IMG/VR virus record: IMGVR_UViG_3300006139_000013
Span: 5,354-69,353 of that record
Strand: one strand, 5' to 3'
DNA from: a virus
Lineage: Duplodnaviria; Caudoviricetes
DNA length: 64,000 bases
The notes beneath the pieces are model-generated. The model ran no database searches. It had not been told where the DNA came from and saw only the letters and a list, made by a program, of their open reading frames with translations. Made by a program: the position numbers and the translations under genes. Positions 4,280 through 54,511 of the stretch are shown here, piece after piece. Positions within the stretch are counted from its first letter, which is position 1, and each line of letters opens with the position of its first letter.

Positions 4280-4296
4280 GTTTTATTGAATAAACT

Positions 4297-4400
4297 GTTA
4301 TTCACTTTTAGATCATTGTCAGTTCCTTGCTCCTGACATTATTTATTATAGTTGAATATACCGTTATTGTCAAGGGGTATTTTAAATTTTGTTTCAAAAA
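4297..4400 (-). repeat. 104-bp promoter block, copy 1 (inverted copy at 43024-43127)
   Basis: Identical by direct alignment. Confidence 0.93.
4345..4373 (-). promoter_or_regulatory. sigmaA-type promoter for tRNA genes
   Basis: TTGACA-17-TATAAT. Confidence 0.9.
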
Positions 4401-4795: not shown

Positions 4796-5983
4796 TCACA
4801 ATTTAATCGCATATTCAATAGCTTTGCCTTTGCCTTTTTCAAAGACAAGAAAAGTGGCTCCAGCATTTGAGGTTTTATGAATAGACAAAGAATAATCATC
4901 AACACCAATAATACTTGGAACATTAATTACTTCCTGATTAATACCAACAGTCTCACTACGAGAATGATGTTTATGACCAGCAATCAAAAAGTCAAGCTGA
5001 ACACGATATATCTGCGAAAAATCTTTAATAGCCTGTTCCATACTTTTTACTTCACCATGAATACCAAGTAACTTATACCCAAGAATATCAGCATAAATGT
5101 ATCCTGTTGGATTCTTAGTAAATGTAAAATTAGGGTTGTTCGCAAGCCTTGTAGCAATAATTGATTCTACCACAAGACTCATATTTTCTTTGGTAAACGT
5201 CCCTTTAGGCTGACCAAGCATACGTAGTTCTGTATGATTTCCGTTAGTGGTTTGAAACTCGACCTCAACGTACTTACTTAATTCATTTAGCCAATTTGAA
5301 ATAAATTCCGCATATCGAACAGTTCCTTCTACTACGCCATACCGAAGCTGCATCAACTGTTTAACTCGTAATAAACCATCCTCAAAATCACCCAATGAAA
5401 ATACATGAATTCTTGAAAATCCTTCTTTTCTAACAATAGAAATAGTTTGATCTAACAAACTCCACATTCTATTTTCAAATATTTCAGGACTATAAGAATT
5501 AATTACCTCATTATTGAGGCCACGAATTTCAAATTCAGTACCGTAATGTTCATCACCAAACAGCAACACCCCTTCTCTGTCAGACAATTCTGTATGAATT
5601 GGTTCAGGAATCACTAAAGGTTCCAACTGTGCAACTGCTTGACAAATATGTTCTACAATTAATTCATCACGAGCATTCTCACGCAGCCAACGATTTAATT
5701 CTAACTTTTCAGTTTGAACTTTATAGCGTTCTTTTCGTAATTCACGCATCTGAACAGTTGCTTCAGTAGGAGTGACAGCAGAACTTTCCAGCGGATTTTT
5801 AATCCAACCAGCTTCTAAATACTCATAAAACAATTTTGCTCCCTTACGAATTGTATCACGGTGTTCATCATCACCTGTATATTCAGCACGTAAATCCGCT
5901 ATATCCTGCCATTCAATAGCAGGATCAGTCAAACGTTGAGAGAGCAAATCAAACTGTCGGCTTAAAAACTCTGTTTGTTCCAA
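4796..5983 (-). CDS. calcineurin-like metallophosphoesterase (SPbeta YonJ-like)
   Basis: GDEHYG, LGDFEDG, GNH, GIHG, GHKH motifs. Confidence 0.8.
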   Translation of the reverse strand: MEQTEFLSRQFDLLSQRLTDPAIEWQDIADLRAEYTGDDEHRDTIRKGAKLFYEYLEAGWIKNPLESSAVTPTEATVQMRELRKERYKVQTEKLELNRWLRENARDELIVEHICQAVAQLEPLVIPEPIHTELSDREGVLLFGDEHYGTEFEIRGLNNEVINSYSPEIFENRMWSLLDQTISIVRKEGFSRIHVFSLGDFEDGLLRVKQLMQLRYGVVEGTVRYAEFISNWLNELSKYVEVEFQTTNGNHTELRMLGQPKGTFTKENMSLVVESIIATRLANNPNFTFTKNPTGYIYADILGYKLLGIHGEVKSMEQAIKDFSQIYRVQLDFLIAGHKHHSRSETVGINQEVINVPSIIGVDDYSLSIHKTSNAGATFLVFEKGKGKAIEYAIKL

Positions 5984-32476: not shown

Positions 32477-33499
32477 ATGGACATTATTGAAGTTTTGATT
32501 CGCCCGGAGTATCGGTTCATTCAAACAAACCCTCATCTTGGGGGGTCGATGCTGTTTGCAACATTTGGCGGTAGTCATTCATACGGTACAAACGTAGAAG
32601 GATCAGACATAGACATTCGTGGATGTGCTTTTAATTCCAAGACTGATTTGCTTGGTAGAACAAATTTTGAACAAGTGATTGATAATGCTACAGATACTAC
32701 AATCTATTCGTTCAATAAGCTGATTGGTCTACTGGAAAACTGCAATCCAAACACAATCGAAATGCTTGGCTGTAGGCCAGAGTCTTATATGTTCTATCAT
32801 CCTATTGGAAAAATGATGGTAGATCAGCGAAAGATGTTTCTGTCGCAAAAGGCAGTTGGTTCTTTTGGCGGTTATGCTACACAGCAGTTGCGGCGGCTGC
32901 AAGCTGCTCTGGCACGTGATCGGTATGACCAGAGTGAAAAGGAAAAGCAAATTCTGTCTTCGTGCAAATCTTCTATGACTACGTTTAATGACCGCTATAA
33001 AGAGTTTGAGGAAGGTGCAATCAATCTTTACATAGGCGATTCTGAACGTGATGATTTGGACACGGAAATCTTTGTGGATGTTTCGCTTCAGCATTATCCG
33101 TTGCGTGACTATAAGAACATCTGGAGCGATTTGAATACAGTTGTAAAAGAGTATGGAAAGATTACACAGCGGAACAAGAAAAAAGATGATGCGCACCTGA
33201 ACAAACACGCTATGCACCTGATCCGTTTGTATCTTATGTGTATCGACATTCTTGAAACTGGTGACATTGTAACCTATCGGAAAAATGATCTACCTTTGCT
33301 GATGGCTATTCGGAATGGTGAGTATCAGAAAGAAGATGGAACATTCCGACAGGAGTTTTATGATATGTTGGACGTATATGAGCAGCGGATGCAGTATGCA
33401 AAGAAGAACACCGATCTGCCTCCGAAGCCTGACTATAAGAAGATCGAAGAATTTGTGATAATGGCAAATTTGGAGGCCATTCAGATTACAGGAGGATAA
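32477..33499 (+). CDS. Pol-beta superfamily nucleotidyltransferase (RlaP/PF10127-like)
   Basis: GGSHSYGTNVEGSDIDIRG motif; KHAMHLIRL. Confidence 0.8.
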   Translation: MDIIEVLIRPEYRFIQTNPHLGGSMLFATFGGSHSYGTNVEGSDIDIRGCAFNSKTDLLGRTNFEQVIDNATDTTIYSFNKLIGLLENCNPNTIEMLGCRPESYMFYHPIGKMMVDQRKMFLSQKAVGSFGGYATQQLRRLQAALARDRYDQSEKEKQILSSCKSSMTTFNDRYKEFEEGAINLYIGDSERDDLDTEIFVDVSLQHYPLRDYKNIWSDLNTVVKEYGKITQRNKKKDDAHLNKHAMHLIRLYLMCIDILETGDIVTYRKNDLPLLMAIRNGEYQKEDGTFRQEFYDMLDVYEQRMQYAKKNTDLPPKPDYKKIEEFVIMANLEAIQITGG

Positions 33500-34752: not shown

Positions 34753-36096
34753 ATGGGAAAAATAATTAATATTCCAGATGCTCCAAAGCAGCTTATGAAG
34801 ATTCTGTTGGATGCAGGATATGAAGCCTATGTAGTGGGTGGCTGCGTTCGTGATTTTCTGTTGGGACGTGTGCCGCATGATTGGGATATTTGTACGAATG
34901 CACTTCCAGAACAAATGAAGGAGTGTTTTGCTGATTATCATGTAATTAAAACTGGCCTCCAGCATGGCACTCTTACAGTTATGGTGGATCATGTTGGGTA
35001 TGAAATTACAACATATCGCACTGATGGAGAGTACACAGATCATCGGCATCCAGATTCAGTGCAGTTTGTCGGCACACTTCAAGAAGATTTGATGCGCCGT
35101 GATTTTACAATCAATGCAATGGCTGCTGATATTAGTGGAAAAATCCGAGACTTTTATGATGGACAATTTGATTTGGAACATAAGTGGATTCGTTGTGTAG
35201 GCGATCCGAATAAACGGTTCACGGAAGATCCATTGCGTATCCTTCGTGCTATGCGGTTTGAATCAAATCTGGGGTTTGCCATTGAACCTTATACAGAAAT
35301 GGCTATGAGGGATCATCGGTATCTGCTCCAGCATATATCCGCTGAAAGAATCAATTCGGAACTATGTGGTATTTTGATGGGCGATTGCTATTCAACGCTG
35401 GCCTGTTACCCTGATGTGCTGGCAGTGTGTATTCCAGATGTTGAACGGTGTATTGGGTTTAAGCAAAACAATCCTCATCACAATAGAAATGTTTGGAATC
35501 ATATTGTGTACGCTGTTTCGGTTGCACCTAAAGACCTTTATGTTCGGCTGGCATTATTGTATCATGATATTGGAAAGCCGTTGTGTTATACAATAGATAG
35601 TGGCGTAGGACATTTTTATGGTCATGCTGCTATCAGTAGAGACATAGCAGAAAAGTCTTTGCGAGAACTACGATTTGATAATCAGACTGTTAAGCTGGTG
35701 ACACAGCTTGTAGAAGCCCATGACAGGACGATTGAGCCACGTAAGCCAGTGATTCGCCGCTGTATGAATAAGCTGGGGCTGGAGCAATTTCTTCGTTTAT
35801 TGAATGTAAAAGAAGCCGACTATGCCGCACAAGCACAGTTGTATGGTGATAGATTGCAAAAGGTAGAGATTCTTCAGATGGCAAATGAAATTCTGGCAGC
35901 ACAAATACAGCAGGAAGAATGTTTCACCTTGAAAGATTTAGCTATCAATGGTAATGACTTGATTCAGCTTGGATATAAACCCGGAAAGAAAATTGGAACT
36001 GTGTTAAATCAGTTGCTTGAGATGGTGATTGATGATAAAATAGCAAATGACAAAGTTCAGTTGACCTTGTGGGCAATCAATCGGATGGAGGAATAG
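34753..36096 (+). CDS. cca: CCA tRNA nucleotidyltransferase with HD domain
   Basis: VGGCVRDFLLG...DWDI; RRDFTINAM; EDPLRILR; LYHDIGK. Confidence 0.93.
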   Translation: MGKIINIPDAPKQLMKILLDAGYEAYVVGGCVRDFLLGRVPHDWDICTNALPEQMKECFADYHVIKTGLQHGTLTVMVDHVGYEITTYRTDGEYTDHRHPDSVQFVGTLQEDLMRRDFTINAMAADISGKIRDFYDGQFDLEHKWIRCVGDPNKRFTEDPLRILRAMRFESNLGFAIEPYTEMAMRDHRYLLQHISAERINSELCGILMGDCYSTLACYPDVLAVCIPDVERCIGFKQNNPHHNRNVWNHIVYAVSVAPKDLYVRLALLYHDIGKPLCYTIDSGVGHFYGHAAISRDIAEKSLRELRFDNQTVKLVTQLVEAHDRTIEPRKPVIRRCMNKLGLEQFLRLLNVKEADYAAQAQLYGDRLQKVEILQMANEILAAQIQQEECFTLKDLAINGNDLIQLGYKPGKKIGTVLNQLLEMVIDDKIANDKVQLTLWAINRMEE

Positions 36097-40098: not shown

Positions 40099-40268
40099 TA
40101 TGTATTGTGATGGTCAGTGCAAGAATTTAGACGAAAAGAAGCATAAGTGCAATTTAACTGGTGAGAAATTGTCCTATATGCGCTATGGAGGGCGTAAAAC
40201 AGGGTTTATTGTGCATGAACATAATGGTGTTTGCGTACAAGATGAAAATAAAAAGGAGGATTCTAACA

Positions 40269-41138
40269 ATGGGTAACAAAAAAGATAGTCTTGGGGATCG
40301 CATGAAGCGATATGAGAATGTATCTAAAGTGAGTTTGGTACGGCGTATGCCCGTTATTATTCGGTTGGATGGCAAGGCATTTCACACGTTTACAAGAGGG
40401 TTTATGAAGCCTTTTGATAGTCTGTTGATGCAGACCATGAATGATACTATGAAATACCTTTGCGAGAACATTCAAGGCTGCGTGATGGCCTATACACAGT
40501 TCGATGAAATTACGCTTGTCTTGATTGATTATCAGACACTTACAAGTGATGCTTGGTTTGATAATAATGTTGAAAAGATGTGTAGTATTTCAGCTTCTAT
40601 GGCTACATTGGCTTTTAATGCTGCTTGGCGCAGGAATGTTGACGCATGGGCTGCAAGTAGGATTCCCGGATGGTATGATGGTGGTACGAATGATCCTGAT
40701 AGTGTAGATCAGGCTGTTTTGAAACAAGCAGAACTGTATGTATCACGTTTTGATCGTGCGCTGTTTGATGCTCGTGCTTTTAATGTGCCGAAAGAGGAAG
40801 TTATGAACTGCTTGATTTGGCGGCAGCAGGACGCTACTCGTAATAGTATCCAGTCTGCGGGTCAGGCCCAGTTCTCACACAAGCAGCTTATGGGAAAGTC
40901 TTGCAATGAAATTCAGGATATGCTTTTTACTCAAAAGGGTATTAACTGGAATGATTATCCTACATCTTGTAAACGGGGTACGTGTTGCATTAAAAAGCCC
41001 GTAACTTTTGATGCCAGAGACAAGTCAGGGAAAGTTACAGGTATTTGTTCTCGTAATAAGTGGGTAATTGATACTGAAATTCCTATTTTCAATCGGGAGC
41101 CTAATTATATCAATTCCCGTGTATTTGTTGGTGGTTAA
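40269..41138 (+). CDS. Thg1-like tRNA-His guanylyltransferase (3'-5' polymerase)
   Basis: RLDGKAFHTFT; QFDEI; FDARAF; WRQQDATRNS; GTCCIK. Confidence 0.92.
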   Translation: MGNKKDSLGDRMKRYENVSKVSLVRRMPVIIRLDGKAFHTFTRGFMKPFDSLLMQTMNDTMKYLCENIQGCVMAYTQFDEITLVLIDYQTLTSDAWFDNNVEKMCSISASMATLAFNAAWRRNVDAWAASRIPGWYDGGTNDPDSVDQAVLKQAELYVSRFDRALFDARAFNVPKEEVMNCLIWRQQDATRNSIQSAGQAQFSHKQLMGKSCNEIQDMLFTQKGINWNDYPTSCKRGTCCIKKPVTFDARDKSGKVTGICSRNKWVIDTEIPIFNREPNYINSRVFVGG

Positions 41139-42464: not shown

Positions 42465-43085
42465 ATGAATAAACCGTATGATTCTGGTTTAATTGTTGGA
42501 CGCTTTCAAACATTTCACAAAGGTCATCAACGGCTTGTAGAAACCGGGCTTACCTTGTGTGATAGGTTGCTTATTCTGGTTGGCTCCGCACAGGAATGTG
42601 GTACTGTTAGAAATCCTCTTAATATTCAAACACGTATTGATATGATTCGTACTGTGTACGACACAGATAGGATAATGATTTATGGTTTGAGTGATATGAC
42701 AGATGAAAATGATATTCGCCCCGAATGGGGTAGGTATCTACTTGGTAATGTAGATCGTTATTTGTATAAGGCTCCAGAACTCATGATTTATGGTAATGAT
42801 GAATCAAGAAGTCGTTGGTTTGATGTAGAGGATATAAAAGATACGTCTGAATTTATTGTGAATCGTGGCAGTTTACCTATTAGTGCTACCATGCTGCGTA
42901 CTATGATGGTTCAAGATAATCGTAAAGACTGGATGCAATGGGTTGATCCCCGGCTACATAAAATGTATGATCGTATTCGTACAGAACTGATGACCGTTTC
43001 GTATTATCAGGACATGGCTAAAATTTTTGAAACAAAATTTAAAATACCCCTTGACAATAACGGTATATTCAACTATAATAAATAA
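42465..43085 (+). CDS. NMN adenylyltransferase-like (NadM/NadR cytidylyltransferase fold)
   Basis: GRFQTFHKGH; GSAQ; NP; ISATMLR. Confidence 0.85.
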   Translation: MNKPYDSGLIVGRFQTFHKGHQRLVETGLTLCDRLLILVGSAQECGTVRNPLNIQTRIDMIRTVYDTDRIMIYGLSDMTDENDIRPEWGRYLLGNVDRYLYKAPELMIYGNDESRSRWFDVEDIKDTSEFIVNRGSLPISATMLRTMMVQDNRKDWMQWVDPRLHKMYDRIRTELMTVSYYQDMAKIFETKFKIPLDNNGIFNYNK

Positions 43086-43127
43086 TGTCAGGAGCAAGGA
43101 ACTGACAATGATCTAAAAGTGAATAAC
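43024..43127 (+). repeat. 104-bp promoter block, copy 2
   Basis: Reverse complement of 4297-4400. Confidence 0.93.
43051..43079 (+). promoter_or_regulatory. sigmaA promoter
   Basis: TTGACA-17-TATAAT. Confidence 0.9.
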
Positions 43128-43149
43128 GACATAATCAATAACTGAAAGG

Positions 43150-43821
43150 GTGCAAAATATGAACATCGAAACCAAAGCAAATGTTGGCGACACTATTTAT
43201 TTTTTGAAACGGATCAATCGTGTAACTTGTCCCTTATGTAATGGAGATGGCAAAATTATTCTTGCGCCAAAGGTAAGCGCAAGTTCGATTGGTGAGCAAA
43301 TTGTTGAGCAATTTATGAATGCTTCTATGGGTAATGTTAAAGAGTATGATTGTCCTGAGTGCGGTGGTAAGGGTACTGTAAAGGCTACTGGTCAGTCTCA
43401 ATATGAAGTTGGTAAGGGTACTGTGATTTCTATTGAGGCCACTATGAATCAGGGGCATGAAAAGGTTATTTATCGTGTTGCAGATTCTACCAGTGCTACT
43501 AACAGAACGCTTACGGATGAAAAGCTGTATCTGGATCAGGAGGCCGCTGAAAAGCAATGTAGATTTATGAATCTGGAGCGGCGTGTAATTCCTCTGGAAT
43601 GTGTGCAGATTCCTCCCTGCTTCGCCAAGACAATTCCTTGCAACGAAAAGTTGATGAAGCGTCTGAATGAGTGGCGTAGTCATCGAAAGTTTGAAACTGA
43701 GATTTATGTGGATGAGAACCTGAATTTGTTTGATGGCTATACGTCTTATCTGGTGTATCGTATGCTTGGCATTTTTGATATTCCTGTTGTGATCTGGCCT
43801 GAAGATGAAAGGAGCAAGTAA
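43150..43821 (+). CDS. DnaJ-type Zn-finger plus ParB-like C-terminus
   Basis: CPLCNGDG, CPECGGKG; LFDGYTSYL. Confidence 0.55.
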   Translation: MQNMNIETKANVGDTIYFLKRINRVTCPLCNGDGKIILAPKVSASSIGEQIVEQFMNASMGNVKEYDCPECGGKGTVKATGQSQYEVGKGTVISIEATMNQGHEKVIYRVADSTSATNRTLTDEKLYLDQEAAEKQCRFMNLERRVIPLECVQIPPCFAKTIPCNEKLMKRLNEWRSHRKFETEIYVDENLNLFDGYTSYLVYRMLGIFDIPVVIWPEDERSK

Positions 43822-46475: not shown

Positions 46476-47108
46476 TTACCTCATTTCAAGACGTTGATTG
46501 ACCAATCGTTTCATGTCATTTTCCCAAGCTGTTTTTCTATGGTTACGTTTCCACTTAATATACTCATTCCAGCGCACGTTAGAAGCCTCATATGACAATC
46601 CAAAAACATCCTGAATATCAGATGCCGATTGAATATGAAGCTGCTCATATAATGGCATAGGACAAAGCAAGAGGGCCGCAAAGTAATCTGCTTCAGCCTC
46701 CAGTTCAGGATTAGAAAGTTTGTTAAAATTGTTCTCTGCGATCCGTGGTTCGGCTAAGTATGATAAGTGCTTTAGAATTACGTGACCAAGTTCATGCGCC
46801 AGAGTCCATCTAATACGACCAACAACATTATTGTTCGCCGTAGAGCCATTGAAAAGTACAAGGTATCTGTTGTTAGTTATATCATAGTGAGTACAACCAC
46901 TTTCGCTTTCACATAATTCCAGTACGTCATTGATAGAACATGAATTGATTTCAGCAAAAGTAGTATATGCCATTGTTTTACAGTTCTTGATTTGATCAAA
47001 GAATAGTTGCGGGTTCATTGGGAAACTGATTGTAGGTAAGCTGCGGTAAAGCTGTAGGACTTGGTTACAAATATAAGCATATCTAATCAAGCGTCTATCA
47101 CCTCGCAA
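46476..47108 (-). CDS. ImmA/IrrE-family metallopeptidase
   Basis: RWTLAHELGH; EAEADYFA. Confidence 0.9.
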   Translation of the reverse strand: MRGDRRLIRYAYICNQVLQLYRSLPTISFPMNPQLFFDQIKNCKTMAYTTFAEINSCSINDVLELCESESGCTHYDITNNRYLVLFNGSTANNNVVGRIRWTLAHELGHVILKHLSYLAEPRIAENNFNKLSNPELEAEADYFAALLLCPMPLYEQLHIQSASDIQDVFGLSYEASNVRWNEYIKWKRNHRKTAWENDMKRLVNQRLEMR

Positions 47109-47142
47109 TTATCATAGCATAGATAAAGTCCAATAATACGGA

Positions 47143-47496
47143 CTATTCTTCATTGTCATCTTTAAACGCATAGTCAAATCCAATACGAAGCATTTGCATC
47201 ATCCGCTGCGGATCGCCTTTGACCATTTTTGACTTTGCTCGTTGGATAGAAATAATATCTGGATCACCACAAATTTCATCCGCTGATGTAGGAATTTCAG
47301 TCAGGCCAAGCAGATAATCGACAGTGACTCCAAAATATTGTGCTATTGCTTTAATCTTATCTACTCCGGGCGTACTGGTAGCTTTCCATTTTTTGATTGT
47401 AGAATTTGAAAATCCACAATCACTTTCCAGACGTGCTATACTGATTTTTCTATCTTCGCACAGTTTTTGAATGCGGTCATATAAACCCATTTCCAT
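47143..47496 (-). CDS. Xre-family HTH repressor (ImmR-like)
   Basis: RIQKLC...SIARLE...IAQYFGVTVDYLLG. Confidence 0.9.
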   Translation of the reverse strand: MEMGLYDRIQKLCEDRKISIARLESDCGFSNSTIKKWKATSTPGVDKIKAIAQYFGVTVDYLLGLTEIPTSADEICGDPDIISIQRAKSKMVKGDPQRMMQMLRIGFDYAFKDDNEE

Positions 47497-47514
47497 AAAA
47501 TTTCCCCTCCACTT

Positions 47515-47631
47515 AGAATATTATCTCATTTTATGCTTGACATTGAGAAAGCTATCTGATATAGTATGACCGTGGGCTGAGAAAATTATCTCTGCACCGC
47601 CCATTATACGGTAAATAATCTAATTTGTCAA
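47515..47631. promoter_or_regulatory. face-to-face promoters with AGA-N4-TATCT operator repeats
   Basis: + TTGACA-17-TATAGT 47537-47565; - TTGACA-17-TATAAT 47631-47603; repeats at 47515, 47546, 47580. Confidence 0.8.
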
Positions 47632-47645
47632 TATAGAATAGGAGT

Positions 47646-48371
47646 GTGATCGAGTTGCATATCAAAGCTGATCCTGTAAGCAATGTAAAGATGCTTTCTT
47701 TGCTTTCTCTGTTGAGTAAGTACGACCTTTTCCATATTTCAGCCGATAATGGTCGTGAATTTAATGCGACAGAAATTGTTGGTGATAATGCAGGGTATAT
47801 GGAATTTAAACGGCTTTTTGCTAATTCGGTTCATTCCAATGGTTATGTAGTAGATATTCAGGCCATAAGTGAAATTGAGTTTATTTGCAAAACATCTTCT
47901 GTTGTATATCACATTTCCGCCTTACATACGAAGCAGCAAGATTCTATTATCAGAGAACGAAAAATATGGAAAGAAATTTCTGATCTAATGTGTGTAGATT
48001 ACTTTGGTGATCGTTTAATCAGCTATGTGAAAGAATTAGATATGCTGATATTGGTAGTTGATCCATCGCTGCTGGGTGAGTTACATCCTATGGAACAGCG
48101 GCAAATTCAACACATCATCAATGTTTATTTAAATGGCTATTCTGATTCCATGCAAATGAGCCGTACTGTGTGTTTCCAGATTAAATTACATGACGGACGC
48201 AATAGAATTTATGCGGGAGTATATGATTTGGAAGGCCAGAATTCAATAACCAGTATTCCTATTTATGATGACCGGGACAAAGAAATAATTGCTGATGATC
48301 TCTACAATAAAGCACAGGAGGTATTGAAATATGCAAAAGAGATGGCAGCAAAATTTTCCTTTCAAAACTAA
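47646..48371 (+). CDS. hypothetical protein
   Basis: 241 aa; AGGAG RBS, GTG start. Confidence 0.7.
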   Translation: MIELHIKADPVSNVKMLSLLSLLSKYDLFHISADNGREFNATEIVGDNAGYMEFKRLFANSVHSNGYVVDIQAISEIEFICKTSSVVYHISALHTKQQDSIIRERKIWKEISDLMCVDYFGDRLISYVKELDMLILVVDPSLLGELHPMEQRQIQHIINVYLNGYSDSMQMSRTVCFQIKLHDGRNRIYAGVYDLEGQNSITSIPIYDDRDKEIIADDLYNKAQEVLKYAKEMAAKFSFQN

Positions 48372-48380
48372 AGATTGTGC

Positions 48381-48409
48381 TTGACATTTGTGGTCAAGCA
48401 TGATAGTAT
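48381..48409 (+). promoter_or_regulatory. promoter of mazF-like gene
   Basis: TTGACA-17-TAGTAT with extended TG. Confidence 0.7.
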
Positions 48410-48455
48410 AATAACAGGTTATTCAATAATAGATATAGATAGGGGGGGTGCTGAT

Positions 48456-48809
48456 ATGAGGACTATAAAAAGAGGCGATATTTTCTATGCTGATTTAAGT
48501 CCAGCCATAGGAAGTGAGCAGGGTGGCACAAGGCCAGTTTTGATAGTTCAAAATGATGTAGGAAATTATCATAGTCCAACAGTAATTGTTGCTATTTTAA
48601 CATCCAAATCAAAGAAAAAACTTCCTACTCATATCAGCATTCATTCAGGTGAAGGTAATATTACAATGGATTCTACGGTTTTACTGGAGCAAATACGAAC
48701 GATTGATAAGTTTCGGCTACAAAAATATGTTGGTAGCGTTTCCGATGATACAATGGATCGTGTTGACCGGGCCATGCTGATAAGTCTTGGCCTCAGTAAT
48801 TCGGCATAA
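48456..48809 (+). CDS. mazF: MazF/PemK-family endoribonuclease
   Basis: RGDIFYADL...GSEQGGTRPVLIVQND...PTVIVA...LLEQIRTIDK. Confidence 0.93.
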   Translation: MRTIKRGDIFYADLSPAIGSEQGGTRPVLIVQNDVGNYHSPTVIVAILTSKSKKKLPTHISIHSGEGNITMDSTVLLEQIRTIDKFRLQKYVGSVSDDTMDRVDRAMLISLGLSNSA

Positions 48810-48832
48810 TAACAGTTTATTCAAAAAACATC

Positions 48833-48861
48833 TTGACAAGGACGCTTAAATCTGTTATTAT
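48833..48861 (+). promoter_or_regulatory. promoter of MrpR-like gene
   Basis: TTGACA-17-TATTAT. Confidence 0.7.
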
Positions 48862-48880
48862 ATTAATTGAGGTGATGAAC

Positions 48881-49843
48881 ATGATTGAGCAATCCGTTAT
48901 GGATAGGTATATCGCAGAATCATCCTTAAAAATGACAGAAATGAGCAGGATCAATTTTGAAAATCTCTTGACCAGATTTTTCAATCTGAAACCTTCGGTA
49001 GAATTTGCCGATCTAAGAAAAGCAGATTTGATTGAAATGTATTCTCAGTTGAATCAACATTCTATTGGCGGGTTCATTACACATAAAAGTAAAGTTAATG
49101 ATTTTGCCAAATGGATGTATGAACAAGGTTATGGATCGGCTGAATTGCTGCGTGATATTTCTGATCTAAAGTATTCGGACATAAATCACGATTATCTGTA
49201 TGATATTTACTATTTCAGAGATGTTGAAGAATTATGGAATTCTATGTCGCTGATATTTGAAGATCGAGGAACGGAGTTTGATACATTTAAGGCGGCTGCT
49301 ATAATGGTATGGCTGGGGATTGATTTGAATGATCTGCCAGACATATTAAAAATTGATATAGATGAATCAAGTCAAAGTATTATTCATCCAGTTACAAGAC
49401 AGAAAGTTGAATTACCACCAGTTGATTTGCGTGATAAAATATTTTCCTTTTTGGTTAGCTATCGTGATGCGGATTCATGCGATACAAGAAAATTTGGCGG
49501 CAGAGTTCTTCCTTATATGCAAAGTAAATATTTATTACGAAGCTATAAGAATGCTCATCTTACAGTGATTCAACTAAGGAAAACATCTGATCCAGTAAAT
49601 CAATTAGCAAAAGATCAAGAATCACAAAGAGTTTTTCAATGGAATAAAATTTACTTGTCTGGCCTGTATTATCGTATCAATCAATATGAAAAGCAGCATG
49701 GTTCAATAGAAAATGATATGAGTATGCTAAATGAGTTTTTTACGTGCAATCAGAAAAAAGAAGTTCAAAAAGAAATATCATTTGCCAGAAAGTATAAAGA
49801 ATATCAAGCGTTTATGAATGCGAAAGAAAAAATAAATGTTTGA
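48881..49843 (+). CDS. MrpR/YopR-like repressor with degenerate tyrosine-recombinase fold
   Basis: Integrase SAM-like N-terminus; lacks R-K-HxxR-H-Y set; IYLSGLYY C-terminal segment. Confidence 0.6.
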   Translation: MIEQSVMDRYIAESSLKMTEMSRINFENLLTRFFNLKPSVEFADLRKADLIEMYSQLNQHSIGGFITHKSKVNDFAKWMYEQGYGSAELLRDISDLKYSDINHDYLYDIYYFRDVEELWNSMSLIFEDRGTEFDTFKAAAIMVWLGIDLNDLPDILKIDIDESSQSIIHPVTRQKVELPPVDLRDKIFSFLVSYRDADSCDTRKFGGRVLPYMQSKYLLRSYKNAHLTVIQLRKTSDPVNQLAKDQESQRVFQWNKIYLSGLYYRINQYEKQHGSIENDMSMLNEFFTCNQKKEVQKEISFARKYKEYQAFMNAKEKINV

Positions 49844-49912
49844 ATTCGGGTTTTAAGGGGGCCAACCTCTTAAAACTTACATAAATAACGGTATAATCAA
49901 TAATAATTATAT

Positions 49913-49989
49913 CGCAAAGTAGTTCAATTGGAAGAACGCTCTGGTGATGTGCTGGGGCTATGTTGGTTCGAGTCCAACCTTTGCGAACA
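49913..49989 (+). ncRNA. tRNA-like RNA with non-canonical anticodon arm, no CCA
   Basis: CGCAAAG/CTTTGCG, GTTC/GAAC, GTTGG-TTCGAGT-CCAAC. Confidence 0.7.
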
Positions 49990-50024
49990 TCAAAATTCAA
50001 AAATCAAAAAAGGAGTAATGTAAT

Positions 50025-50672
50025 ATGACTGCTGAAACTATGACCGTACATAAGGCCCTTGCTGAACTGAAGATTCTTGGTGGTCGCATTGAGGGCGCAA
50101 TTCTGAGTGGTGATTTTGTTATCACGAAGAAGAACAACCAAGATACTGTAAAAGGCAAAACGGTAGAGCAGTATAAGGCCAAGGCTACAGAGGCTTTCCA
50201 GAAGGCATCTGATCTGATTCGCCGCCGCAACGCAATTAAGAATGCTGTGGTTGTTTCTAATGCTAAGACTATGGTGAAAATTGGCGACAAGGAGTATACG
50301 GTGGTTGAGGCCATTGAAAAGAAGAATCACGGTATGGACTATTACATTCAGCTTCGTGATATTCTTCGCCAGCAGCTTTCAAAGCAGAAAACCGAACTGG
50401 AGAAGCATAACGCCTCTCTTCAGCAGAAGGCAGAACAATTTGCTGTGGCAATGATGGGCGGCAAAGATGTAAAGGATGTAAAGACCGATAGTGATGAGTA
50501 TGTTGCTTCGATGAATACTTACATCAAGGCAAATACTATGACGCTGCTTGATCCGCTTGGTATCGAAGCAAAGATTGAGGAACTGGATGACATGATTAAC
50601 ACATTCCTGCCCGAAGTGGATGCGGCTCTGTCGGTAAGTAATGCGGTAACTACCATTACTGTCGAATACTAA
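50025..50672 (+). CDS. helical coiled-coil protein, distantly DIP1984/septicolysin-like
   Basis: KALAELK...SNA...TVVEAIEKK...VDAALSVSNAVTTI pattern. Confidence 0.5.
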   Translation: MTAETMTVHKALAELKILGGRIEGAILSGDFVITKKNNQDTVKGKTVEQYKAKATEAFQKASDLIRRRNAIKNAVVVSNAKTMVKIGDKEYTVVEAIEKKNHGMDYYIQLRDILRQQLSKQKTELEKHNASLQQKAEQFAVAMMGGKDVKDVKTDSDEYVASMNTYIKANTMTLLDPLGIEAKIEELDDMINTFLPEVDAALSVSNAVTTITVEY

Positions 50673-52324: not shown

Positions 52325-54511
52325 ATGAGGGTTTTACTTTTGCTCCGTGGCTCTGCTGGAGTGGGTAAGTCCACTTATATTAAGGAACATGATCTGGAGC
52401 AGTATGCGCTTTCTGCCGACAATATCCGTTTGATGTGCCAATCACCCGTTTTGCAAACAGATGGATCGGTAGCAATTAGTCAGACAAATGAAAAGCTGGT
52501 ATGGAATCTTATGTTCCAGATGCTTGAGGCCAGAATGCAGCGTGGCGAATTTGTGGTGATTGATGCAACCAATTCTAAGACGCAGGACATTAATAGATAT
52601 AAAGATATGGCAAAGACGTATCGGTATCGTATGTACTGCGTTGATATGACAGGAGTACCCATTGACGAATGTAAGCGGCGTAACAAACTCAGACCGCCTT
52701 ACAAACAGGTTCCAGATGAAGTAATCGAAAAGATGTATTCCAGATTTGAGACACAGCAAGTTCCAACTGGCGTGACTGTGATTCAGCCTGACGAACTGGA
52801 TACTATCTGGTATAAACCTGCTAATTTTGATCGCTACAAGCGGATTCATCATATCGGTGATATTCATGGTTGTAATACTGTCCTGCAAGAGTATCTGAAA
52901 GATGGTATGCACGATGATGAACTGTATATTTTCTGCGGCGATTATATTGATCGTGGTATCGAAAATGTTGAAGTTATTAAGTTCCTTTTCAATATCATGG
53001 ATAAGCCGAATGTGATTCTGCTGGAGGGCAATCATGAACGCTGGCTTTGGTATTGGGCGCATGGTGGCACATCTCAGTCTAAAGAATTTGAGAATGTAAC
53101 ACGGCGGCAGCTTGAAGCTGGGGGGTTGGATACTAAGGTTGCTCGAATGTTGTATCGTAAACTTAATCAGTGTGTGTATTATAGGTTTGGTGAAAAGACT
53201 GTGCTTGTTACTCATGCTGGTTTGAGTTTGATTCCTGATAATCTGACTAAGGTTGCATCTGAACAGATGATCCGTGGTGTTGGTCGATATGGCGACTATC
53301 TTGATGTAGCAGCTACTTTCGATCAGACAATGCCTGAAAATACATATCAAATCTTTGGTCATCGTAATACCGAAGATTCTCCCATTGCAATGTCAGATCG
53401 GTGTTTTAATCTGGAGGGAGCGATTGAACAGGGCGGTTGCCTAAGAGCCGTTGTTTTGGATGCAGATGGGTTCCATCCTGTTATGATCCAGAATACCGTA
53501 TTTCGCCAGCGAGAGGAAGTTGCTCCTGTTGGATATACCGCAGAAGAAAAGAGCGTAATGGATGTTGTCGATAAGCTGCGGCAAAATCGCTACATCTATG
53601 AAAAACAGCTTGGTAACATTTCATCCTTTAACTTTACTCGTGATGCTTTTTATGATAAGAAATGGAATGAACAGACTACTAAAGCACGTGGCCTGTTTAT
53701 TGATACCGCTAATGGCATAGTGGTAGCACGTTCTTATCCTAAGTTCTTCAATGTTAATGAGCGTCCTGAAACCAGATTCGGTATGCTCCAGTATAAGTTG
53801 AAGTTCCCTGTAACGGTTTACGTAAAGGAAAATGGATTCCTTGGTATGGTATCTTATAATCCTGAAACGGACGATTTCTTCATTGCAAGCAAGTCAACAA
53901 CAGAGGGTGATTTTGCGGGTTGGTTGCGGGATATGTTCTTTAAGAATGTAAAAAATCCTGATAAACTGAAAGATTATCTGAAGCGCAAGAATGTAACCCT
54001 TGTGTTTGAATGCGTGGATATGGCTAATGATCCGCATATCATTAAGTATGATACTTCTCATCTGTTTTTGTTGGATGTAGTCAAGAATCAGCTTGATTTT
54101 GAAAAGTTGCCATATACTCAAGTTGTTGAACTTGGCAATGAATACGGGTTTGAAGTTAAGACAAGGGCAGTTCAGCTTCAAAATTGGCATGAGTTCCGTG
54201 ATTGGTATAATGATGTACTTGCAGAGGATTATCAGTTCAACGGGCGTATCATTGAAGGCTTTGTAGTAGAAGATAGTGTTGGCTTTATGGTAAAGATTAA
54301 ACTTGACTATTACAAGCTATGGAAACATATGCGTGGCGTTGCACAATCTGTTTTTAGAAGCGGTTACTATCGGCGTATGGGTTCGTTGCTCACACCGCTC
54401 CAAAATCAGTTTTATGGGTTCTGTCAGGAAATTGCAAAGCAAGAAGATCATCCTACTAATATTATTGAACTGCGAGATATTTTTATGTCTCAATATAACC
54501 CAAGCAAATAA
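52325..54511 (+). CDS. polynucleotide kinase / phosphatase / RNA ligase fusion
   Basis: GSAGVGKST; IGDIHG, GDYIDRG, GNHE; KENGFLG and EGFV ligase motifs. Confidence 0.92.
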   Translation: MRVLLLLRGSAGVGKSTYIKEHDLEQYALSADNIRLMCQSPVLQTDGSVAISQTNEKLVWNLMFQMLEARMQRGEFVVIDATNSKTQDINRYKDMAKTYRYRMYCVDMTGVPIDECKRRNKLRPPYKQVPDEVIEKMYSRFETQQVPTGVTVIQPDELDTIWYKPANFDRYKRIHHIGDIHGCNTVLQEYLKDGMHDDELYIFCGDYIDRGIENVEVIKFLFNIMDKPNVILLEGNHERWLWYWAHGGTSQSKEFENVTRRQLEAGGLDTKVARMLYRKLNQCVYYRFGEKTVLVTHAGLSLIPDNLTKVASEQMIRGVGRYGDYLDVAATFDQTMPENTYQIFGHRNTEDSPIAMSDRCFNLEGAIEQGGCLRAVVLDADGFHPVMIQNTVFRQREEVAPVGYTAEEKSVMDVVDKLRQNRYIYEKQLGNISSFNFTRDAFYDKKWNEQTTKARGLFIDTANGIVVARSYPKFFNVNERPETRFGMLQYKLKFPVTVYVKENGFLGMVSYNPETDDFFIASKSTTEGDFAGWLRDMFFKNVKNPDKLKDYLKRKNVTLVFECVDMANDPHIIKYDTSHLFLLDVVKNQLDFEKLPYTQVVELGNEYGFEVKTRAVQLQNWHEFRDWYNDVLAEDYQFNGRIIEGFVVEDSVGFMVKIKLDYYKLWKHMRGVAQSVFRSGYYRRMGSLLTPLQNQFYGFCQEIAKQEDHPTNIIELRDIFMSQYNPSK

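Follow-up and report, generated by a model that had tools for sequence, protein, structure and literature searches.

Based on the sequence of a 64,000-nt stretch of a Caudoviricetes genome (the window, positions 5,354 to 69,353 of the 69-kb IMG/VR record IMGVR_UViG_3300006139_000013), comparisons to related phages and structure prediction, we propose that this phage carries a MazF-type endoribonuclease toxin as an accessory of its lysis-lysogeny decision. The mazF gene is intact, has its own promoter and is directly followed by the gene for p322, a protein modelled in the fold of the phage regulators SroF and MrpR. A box beginning with AATAAC, which is dispersed over the phage genome and differs in type along with the p322 allele, occurs on both sides of mazF. 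The reading that we tentatively favour, with confidence slightly short of even, is that of a repressor-gated, accessory MazF without an antitoxin, which would act as a non-essential brake favouring lysogeny or an aborted cycle. A preliminary description of the stretch, made from its letters alone, had placed a mazF directly upstream of an MrpR-like repressor gene, and this location, in the immunity region of a temperate phage, is confirmed here.

The locus is made up of the following features.
46476-47496, minus strand: lysogeny module, with an ImmA/IrrE-type metalloprotease (46476-47108) and an XRE-family repressor (47143-47496)
47537-47631: divergent promoters from the promoter scan, rightward with TTGACA at 47537, a 17-nt spacer and TATAGT ending at 47565, leftward with TTGACA at 47631, a 17-nt spacer and TATAAT ending at 47603
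47655-48371, plus strand: p241, 238 aa, first gene of the rightward unit, from TTG 47655 (alternative start GTG 47646)
48381-48409, plus strand: mazF promoter from the promoter scan, TTGACA (48381-48386), a 17-nt spacer and TG-n-TAGTAT (TAGTAT at 48404-48409)
48410-48429, plus strand: AATAAC box 1, AATAACAGGTTATTCAATAA, directly 3' of the mazF -10 element, at about +1 to +20
48456-48809, plus strand: mazF, EndoA-type endoribonuclease toxin, 117 aa, intact
48808-48827, plus strand: AATAAC box 2, AATAACAGTTTATTCAAAAA, overlapping the mazF stop codon and ending 5 nt before the -35 element of the p322 promoter
48833-48861, plus strand: p322 promoter from the promoter scan, TTGACA, a 17-nt spacer and a TG-extended TATTAT, conserved in relatives
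48881-49843, plus strand: p322, 320 aa from ATG 48881 (the start used by homologues) or 322 aa from ATG 48875
49848-49878, plus strand: 13-bp hairpin right after the p322 stop codon (-15.8 kcal/mol, z -3.55), likely the end of the rightward unit

The mazF product matches PF02452 with 120.7 bits (E 4e-35; cut-off 23.1 bits) as well as PHROG 1936, 'MazF-like growth inhibitor', and is about 60% identical over its full length to the structurally determined B. subtilis EndoA and S. aureus MazF (PDB 4MDX, 1NE8 and 4MZM; E about 2e-36). Arg26 and Thr49 occupy the alignment positions of Arg25 and Thr48 (B. subtilis numbering), which are catalytic in EndoA-type MazF (PMC7354611), and the conserved loop segments are the same. 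The gene thus probably encodes an active RNase, and cleavage at UACAU is plausible from the 60% identity to Bacillus and Staphylococcus enzymes of that specificity. An in-frame upstream extension, a 144-codon open reading frame starting at 48375, was rejected in favour of the coding sequence 48456-48809, for which the G7 run at 48443-48449 serves as Shine-Dalgarno sequence. The promoter is conserved in relatives and is retained even with mazF deleted; an element equivalent to box 2 is likewise retained in relatives without the gene. In agreement with the preliminary description, mazF is therefore real and has its own promoter, with one AATAAC motif at the promoter and a second copy after the gene, over the stop codon; coordinates required small corrections, and the first box starts right after the -10 element.

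A type II mazEF locus combines the toxin gene with an adjacent, co-transcribed small MazE of the AbrB/SpoVT or ribbon-helix-helix (RHH) fold, and no such gene was found here. The intergenic gaps flanking mazF (84 nt and 65-71 nt) are too short to leave room for a further gene, and comparison of open frames among relatives gave no conserved antisense open reading frame at mazF. The AbrB-type and RHH-type antitoxin families PF04014 and PF01402 are absent from the record and from four relatives (G001-G004, 92-100% complete), two of which carry an intact mazF. A search of six phage genomes for the helix M-x3-Y-x-E-M, shared by MazE, AimX and YosL, returned zero strict matches. The earlier view that no MazE-sized antitoxin adjoins the gene is hence supported, and the label 'orphan' is justified with respect to known antitoxin families; beyond these, p241, p322 or host MazE could neutralise the toxin. 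The locus thereby raises the question of how lysogens tolerate a toxin without a recognisable antitoxin.

The protein encoded downstream, p322, has 49 homologue clusters in metagenomes, all nameless and without a Pfam domain. A tblastn search of 50,697 phage records gave zero matches, and neither phmmer nor profile searches matched any solved structure at E values up to 10, i.e. sequence homology to SroF or MrpR is not detectable by these means. In contrast to the sequence, the fold is telling. With the AlphaFold2 model (predicted local distance difference test, pLDDT, 91) as query, Foldseek ranks YopR, MrpR and SroF first. VIA-align superposes the model on DNA-bound phi3T SroF (9rd5_H) with Z 19.2 and a root-mean-square deviation of 4.8 A over 295 of 317 residues, and on SPbeta MrpR/YopR with Z 15.1-16.3 (9rgl, 8a0a, 8bj6 and 8bpz); true recombinases come next, at Z 12 or less. 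The family alignment, as read by eye, contains the motif W-x-G-I-(D/E)-x-x-x-L with Asp or Glu at the recombinase Arg-I position. As modelled, p322 has a two-domain tyrosine-recombinase-like fold that is closest to SroF/MrpR, so that the earlier term 'MrpR-like' is apt for the fold (Z 19.2 and about 15) and inapt for the sequence. An 'inverted half-site' at 48849-48865 was considered as an operator arm and rejected, since it is the TG-extended -10 element belonging to the p322 promoter and relatives conserve it in that form.

The record is estimated to be 54% complete. Records of relatives measure 118-133 kb at 92-100% completeness, one of them with direct terminal repeats (G004, 100% complete), and the phage genome is roughly 120-130 kb in size, with mouse-gut Clostridia as hosts. 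Public runs containing the exact stretch are mouse gut samples and isolates of one organism. A close relative, with backbone proteins about 95% identical, makes up the initial ~122 kb of a 196-kb contig in Flintibacter muris DSM 110149 (Clostridia), and the GC content of this contig rises from 37% to 58% just past a Tn916-type tyrosine integrase. The phage family is therefore temperate, as demonstrated by the integrated relative with its prophage junction and integrase.

The arrangement of the locus, with ImmA and XRE leftward and p241-mazF-p322 rightward, is syntenic in all relatives. Among 80 surveyed viral contigs that carry a MazF relative, L044-L051 also show the order p241-mazF-p322, and a distant clade (L077-L085) has a 236-aa protein, a MazF that is 54% identical, a 322-aa protein and a homologue of p215 in succession. 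By hhalign, the 322-aa protein aligns to the profile of p322 with E 1.5e-5 over 174 columns, and the similarity of the 236-aa protein to a broadened profile of p241 is weak, yet collinear (E 1.3e-4, 180 columns). Since the arrangement recurs in this distant clade, it is old.

The second line of evidence comes from the box. The pattern WATAAC-N4-TAWTCAA occurs in 22 copies at no more than one mismatch in the 69-kb record, and a tighter pattern in 12 and 21 copies at one and two mismatches, respectively, compared to 0 and 0.4 expected from shuffles. The box is about 20 nt long and always points in the direction of the surrounding genes. In three perfect TTGACA/TATAAT promoters a copy takes up the 17-nt spacer; many copies stop a few nucleotides short of a Shine-Dalgarno sequence, and two are located ahead of tRNA genes. 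A palindromic box was considered and discarded, as only the copy at 48410 reads AATAAC-NN-GTTATT and the family consensus is asymmetric. A promoter module of ~90 nt, consisting of TTGACA, a box as spacer, TATAAT, a hairpin and a second box, is repeated at 4283-4371 (minus strand) and 43051-43141 (plus strand), with one copy before tRNA-Glu and the other before a gene at 43150; the F. muris prophage has the module too, with its own box type.

In this phage the 3' half of the box reads GGTATAATCAATAA, and the same type is present in 27 copies in G001, whose p322 is 79% identical. In the F. muris prophage this box occurs three times, which is chance level; there, the box is AATAAC-AATATTTMTAAT, in ~19-23 copies at homologous sites. 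At sites where the upstream flank is 86-98% identical between the two phages, they share the 5' hexamer of the box and differ over its 3' 14 nt. Most proteins of these phages are 90-100% identical, including XRE (98%) and ImmA (94%), compared to 45% for p322, 61% for p241 and 83% for MazF. A 3' half-box of its own is also found in each of three more p322 clades (identity of 58% or less), giving five clades in all, and every one of the six phages compared has the same 5' AATAAC half. At the mazF promoter and ahead of the p322 promoter, the box is of each phage's own type, and mazF belongs to the box regulon because of this phage-by-phage switching. XRE is excluded as the reader of the box, since XRE (98% identical) and its operators are unchanged between this phage and the F. 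muris prophage, whose box types differ. From the co-variation and by analogy of fold, p322 is most likely the box reader. This agrees with published work on the proteins closest to it in structure: SroF, a monomer, recognises 24 of 26 bp in an AT-rich box that recurs at many phage sites, and MrpR binds SPBRE in ~10 promoter regions. We note that the change of a single regulator allele is accompanied by a change in the 3' 14 nt of ~20 dispersed boxes (window 4283-59485, compared with G005:C4 1-121900). The different box types and p322 alleles, which occur on a near-identical backbone, represent a natural specificity-swap series for the study of DNA reading and immunity groups.

The proximity of the two genes also permits a reversed toxin-antitoxin pair, in which p322 would be both a DNA-binding autorepressor and the protein-level antitoxin of MazF. 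Loci of the higBA and mqsRA type have the antitoxin gene downstream of the toxin gene. The boxes on either side of mazF, the lack of an intrinsic terminator in the search between mazF and p322, and the persistence of the MazF-p322 pairing in the distant clade fit such a pair, as does the survival of p322 without mazF, given that mazF without p322 was seen in no complete locus examined. However, a regulon of at least 20 boxes extends far beyond that of a toxin-antitoxin autoregulator, the exchange of p322 in F. muris (45%) with MazF still at 83% is hard to fit with a toxin-binding interface, and SroF and MrpR are not reported as MazF binders. We consider this arrangement very unlikely.

Upstream, the lysogeny module is identified by Pfam (HTH_26/HTH_3 for the repressor, Peptidase_M78 for the protease) and by PHROG (transcriptional regulator and metalloprotease). 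Two direct repeats, TGAGAAANNTATCT, at 47544 and 47578 are located in the spacer of the rightward promoter and just downstream of it, and are unique to this region in the window. They are kept in G001, the F. muris prophage and G004. Conservation holds for every XRE of 75% identity or more, and the repeats are altered next to an XRE of 48% identity, suggesting that they (47544-47591) are probably XRE operators. A third, degenerate copy of TGAGAAANNTATCT lies near 47513.

Evidence from sequencing reads consists of assembled contigs only, which give no transcript levels, strands or true ends and in which DNA carry-over is uncontrolled. RNA-library contigs from two studies cover the trio, with breaks at 47529-47589. 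In run X10 a single contig extends from 47573, 7-8 nt past the rightward -10 element, to 49849, where it ends in adapter sequence at the foot of the hairpin 49848-49878, and the leftward contig ends at 47586. Mean contig depths, which are not to be read as transcript levels, are 158-159 for both immunity units and 25-31 downstream. The contig of run X12 (depth 102) starts at 47955 inside p241 and has an adapter end at 49789. These contigs lend support to transcription of p241-mazF-p322 as a bounded unit.

Combining these data, the favoured reading of mazF as a repressor-gated brake would operate as follows. The rightward unit would start at a promoter with two putative XRE operators, which would form the first layer of control. 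As a second layer, p322, a presumed non-catalytic DNA binder with a recombinase fold, would sit on the box at mazF's own promoter, and would be bound also to at least 20 further boxes located in the spacers of promoters and in gene leaders throughout the phage genome. MazF would be made mainly with the repressors absent or inactivated, i.e. at entry and at induction. The enzyme would then cut RNA, presumably at UACAU, and so apply a brake to both phage and host translation, leading to lysogeny or an aborted cycle, until accumulation of p322 would shut mazF off. An SOS input would enter via the XRE/ImmA pair; no LexA box was found in the window.

Several observations weigh against this proposal. 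The mazF gene is deleted, with its promoter retained, in the 100% complete G004 as well as in L008 and L012; it has a +1 frameshift inside a G9-10 run in G003/L006 (L006:7630-7640) and another +1 frameshift, an extra T, in the cultured F. muris lysogen. In the lineages with mazF lost or broken, p241, p322, XRE and ImmA are intact. As whole lineages have lost the gene, the switch works without it, and the toxin would tune the switch rather than form a core part of it; a role of mazF as a necessary component of the switch is contradicted by the deletion in G004 and the frameshifts in G003 and the F. muris lysogen. In addition, phage genes contain 71 sense UACAU sites compared to 70.6 expected from synonymous shuffles (109 antisense), and depletion of the presumed cleavage motif, which the preliminary description had named as a point to check, was not observed. 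Pooled orthologues have 1.6 sites per kb for p322 (six orthologues), 1.9 for p241 and 1.9 for XRE, next to a genome mean of ~1.5, and the lysogeny genes including p322 show no meaningful sparing of UACAU; mazF has 0 sites in a pooled 1.6 kb, which is not significant. The sro operon is reportedly spared of UACAU, unlike the p322 mRNA here. Of the earlier proposal that the RNase has been internalised into the lysis-lysogeny switch, the promoter carrying a p322-tracking box is in favour, whereas the dispensability of the gene and a p322 mRNA that is not poor in UACAU are not. Furthermore, mazF and p322 share one RNA-library contig with the same mean depth as the XRE-ImmA contig; equal depth could mean that mazF is expressed in lysogens, requiring a neutraliser at the protein level. 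An isolate contig (run X15) spans the stretch with no change within mazF, and the intact gene is consequently stably carried. Finally, p241 also differs between box types (61% vs 75% identity) and is a possible alternative reader, and the box could instead be a promoter-like or RNA-level element, as it abuts Shine-Dalgarno sequences and is co-oriented with genes.

The losses of mazF also bear on the view that the gene is a selfish or decaying passenger without a present role for the phage, persisting only because neighbouring repressors silence it. One deletion and two independent frameshifts among ~8 lineages point in this direction, along with a moron-like anatomy in which a gene with its own promoter is inserted between two conserved genes. 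A remnant of ~150 nt in the mazF-less L007 weakly suggests a deletion scar. Nevertheless, at least six lineages have an undamaged mazF that retains every catalytic and substrate-binding segment, the gene holds its position where neighbours have fallen to ~15-17% identity and MazF is still at 54%, and its promoter box is updated to the type of each phage. A mere passenger is thus very unlikely in our view.

As a further alternative, mazF may be part of an ordinary type II toxin-antitoxin pair, in which the unconventional antitoxin that binds and neutralises MazF would be p241 or a shorter product nested in its C-terminal part. The pair would serve prophage stabilisation or, in lysogens, abortive infection and exclusion, and the association with p322 would be mere synteny. 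Wherever mazF is present p241 lies directly upstream, the usual position of an antitoxin gene, and it evolves faster than MazF (61% vs 83% identity between the same two phages, with XRE at 98%). It ends in a long amphipathic helix, RNA-library contigs extend over both genes, with the one that starts at 47955 beginning after a predicted internal promoter and before Met112, and mazF is intact in isolate contigs. On the other hand, p241 has 238 aa and matches no antitoxin family, it lacks the M-x3-Y-x-E-M helix of MazE, AimX and YosL, the mazF promoter is separate from that of p241, and p241 remains intact in a widespread mazF-less lineage (G004, L008 and L012) and therefore has a function of its own. 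Taken together, we regard p241 as antitoxin as possible but unlikely.

Regarding p241 itself, the protein has no match in Pfam, PHROG, PADLOC or NCBIfam, and its relatives fall into ~70 representative clusters, all of 220-245 aa. The AlphaFold2 model (pLDDT 89), which includes the C-terminal helix, reached a TM score of only ~0.16 in Foldseek searches of the PDB, and the ESM Atlas gave no usable match; similarities to YojF (Z 7.6) and to an Hfq-like fold (Z 5.5; VIA-wide, residues 9-94, N-terminal domain) were considered too weak for assigning a fold. The predicted promoter inside the gene consists of CTTACA, an 18-nt spacer and TATTAT at 47921-47950. ATG 47988, which encodes the nearly invariant Met112, is found 33 nt past the contig start at 47955 in run X12, and a nested 127-aa C-terminal product is possible.

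Alternatively, MazF may be neutralised by host MazE or by nothing, and serve as an early weapon against the RNA of the host or of competitor phages, or to titrate MazE, with the RNA-repair enzymes and tRNAs of the phage buffering self-damage. The 60% identity to chromosomal EndoA-type MazF is compatible with such a function, and the F. muris genome encodes several MazF proteins together with a canonical mazEF pair. The phage also encodes a fusion of polynucleotide kinase, phosphatase and RNA ligase 3.5 kb downstream (52325-54511), a CCA-adding enzyme (34753-36096), RlaP (32477-33499), a Thg1-like enzyme and ~10 tRNAs, and solitary phage mazF genes are found in other contexts (PHROG 1936, Enterocloster phages). 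Yet, with a GC content of 62% for the known host and 38% for the phage, UACAU sites should be more frequent in RNA of the phage than in that of the host, the sense UACAU sites in phage genes are at shuffle expectation, and no recognisable mazE adjoins the single chromosomal EndoA-type mazF that was examined. We rate this role, including the proposed buffering, as decidedly unlikely.

The chromosomal gene just mentioned (L021:1474-2160, G005:C2) adjoins alr in F. muris, as in B. subtilis, with no recognisable mazE in the 315-bp gap between mazF and alr; mazF without mazE may be a trait of this bacterial lineage. In the phage, a tRNA-His-like gene with the unusual anticodon AUG is located downstream of p322 (49912-49988; ARAGORN; Rfam tRNA 45.6 bits), and Rfam found nothing beyond this tRNA over 47300-50100. 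The Thg1-like enzyme of the same phage is a tRNA-His guanylyltransferase (40161-41138).

In a more far-reaching interpretation, p241-mazF-p322 would be a decision cassette that is complete in itself, works without arbitrium and is anciently related to the SPbeta system, having spread beyond Bacillus. Here, the phage's own MazF would be the lysogeny-promoting brake, and the box would have two parts, AATAAC as the invariable half and a 3' half that can be exchanged and sets immunity types, with ~20 boxes rewritten in concert upon a change of the repressor allele. Cleavage of XRE by ImmA would release p241, a new fold, to inactivate p322, MazF or both. Taken as a whole, we assign this combination of steps a low probability, well below that of the accessory brake.

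Compared to known systems, the phage MazF shares ~60% identity, the catalytic residues and the loops with EndoA of the EndoA/EndoAI pair (ydcE/ndoA with MazE) and with S. aureus MazF, but is phage-encoded, has its own sigma-70 promoter and lacks an RHH or AbrB MazE, the upstream gene encoding a 238-aa protein instead. In SPbeta-group phages host MazF favours lysogeny, AimX and YosL inhibit host MazF, and SroA/phi3T_93 sequesters MazE (PMC10769878); the Bacillus background invoked in the preliminary description is accurate (PMC10769878; bioRxiv 10.1101/2025.11.27.690993). Its statement that no arbitrium module is visible also agrees with our data, as AimR (PF22871) is absent from the record and from three near-complete relatives. 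Similar to the phi3T/SPbeta arbitrium-MazEF circuit, a MazF of the same subfamily is tied physically, and probably regulatorily, to the gene of an integrase-fold repressor. Here, however, the toxin is phage-owned and dispensable, no AimR/AimP/AimX, YosL-like helix or MazE was seen, and the repressor mRNA is not poor in UACAU.

The regulator resembles MrpR (YopR) and SroF in fold and in size (320 aa), and possibly in the acidic residue that the alignment, read by eye, places at the Arg-I motif, and the box resembles SPBRE and Phi3TRE in being long, asymmetric, AT-rich, specific to the phage type and repeated in promoter regions of a phage of ~120-130 kb. Differences include the Clostridia hosts and the boxes, whose number is two to three times higher and which often directly adjoin ribosome-binding sites. 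The neighbours of p322 are p241, mazF and the tRNA-like gene, in contrast to the sro operon with arbitrium and a LexA-controlled Sar antirepressor; AimR and a LexA box are likewise not seen here. A precedent for a prophage toxin under a transcriptional repressor rather than a protein antitoxin is RacR-YdaS/YdaT of the E. coli rac prophage (PMC5700373), although the proteins are unrelated and rac is a cryptic prophage. Phage-borne MazF is also present in the Enterocloster phage PMBT24 as an 'mRNA interferase' (L001:5974-6330; H1-H7), 51% identical and without an annotated MazE; in these ~100-kb phages, mazF lies between the genes for the major tail protein and a holin, with no p241 or p322 relatives nearby.

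In conclusion, the toxin family, the repressor fold and phage-borne MazF (PHROG 1936) are already known. The literature searched contains neither a MazF that belongs to a phage and is tied to an integrase-fold regulator outside Bacillus nor an allele-specific two-part box, and integrase-fold master repressors and the link of MazF to lysogeny have so far been described only in SPbeta-like Bacillus phages, where the toxin is host-owned. The locus extends the SroF/MrpR fold, along with a box regulon, to abundant large prophages of mouse-gut Clostridia. With the RNase located on the phage and under the regulator's presumed box, it would permit clean genetics on whether MazF activity by itself can bias lysis versus lysogeny without arbitrium.

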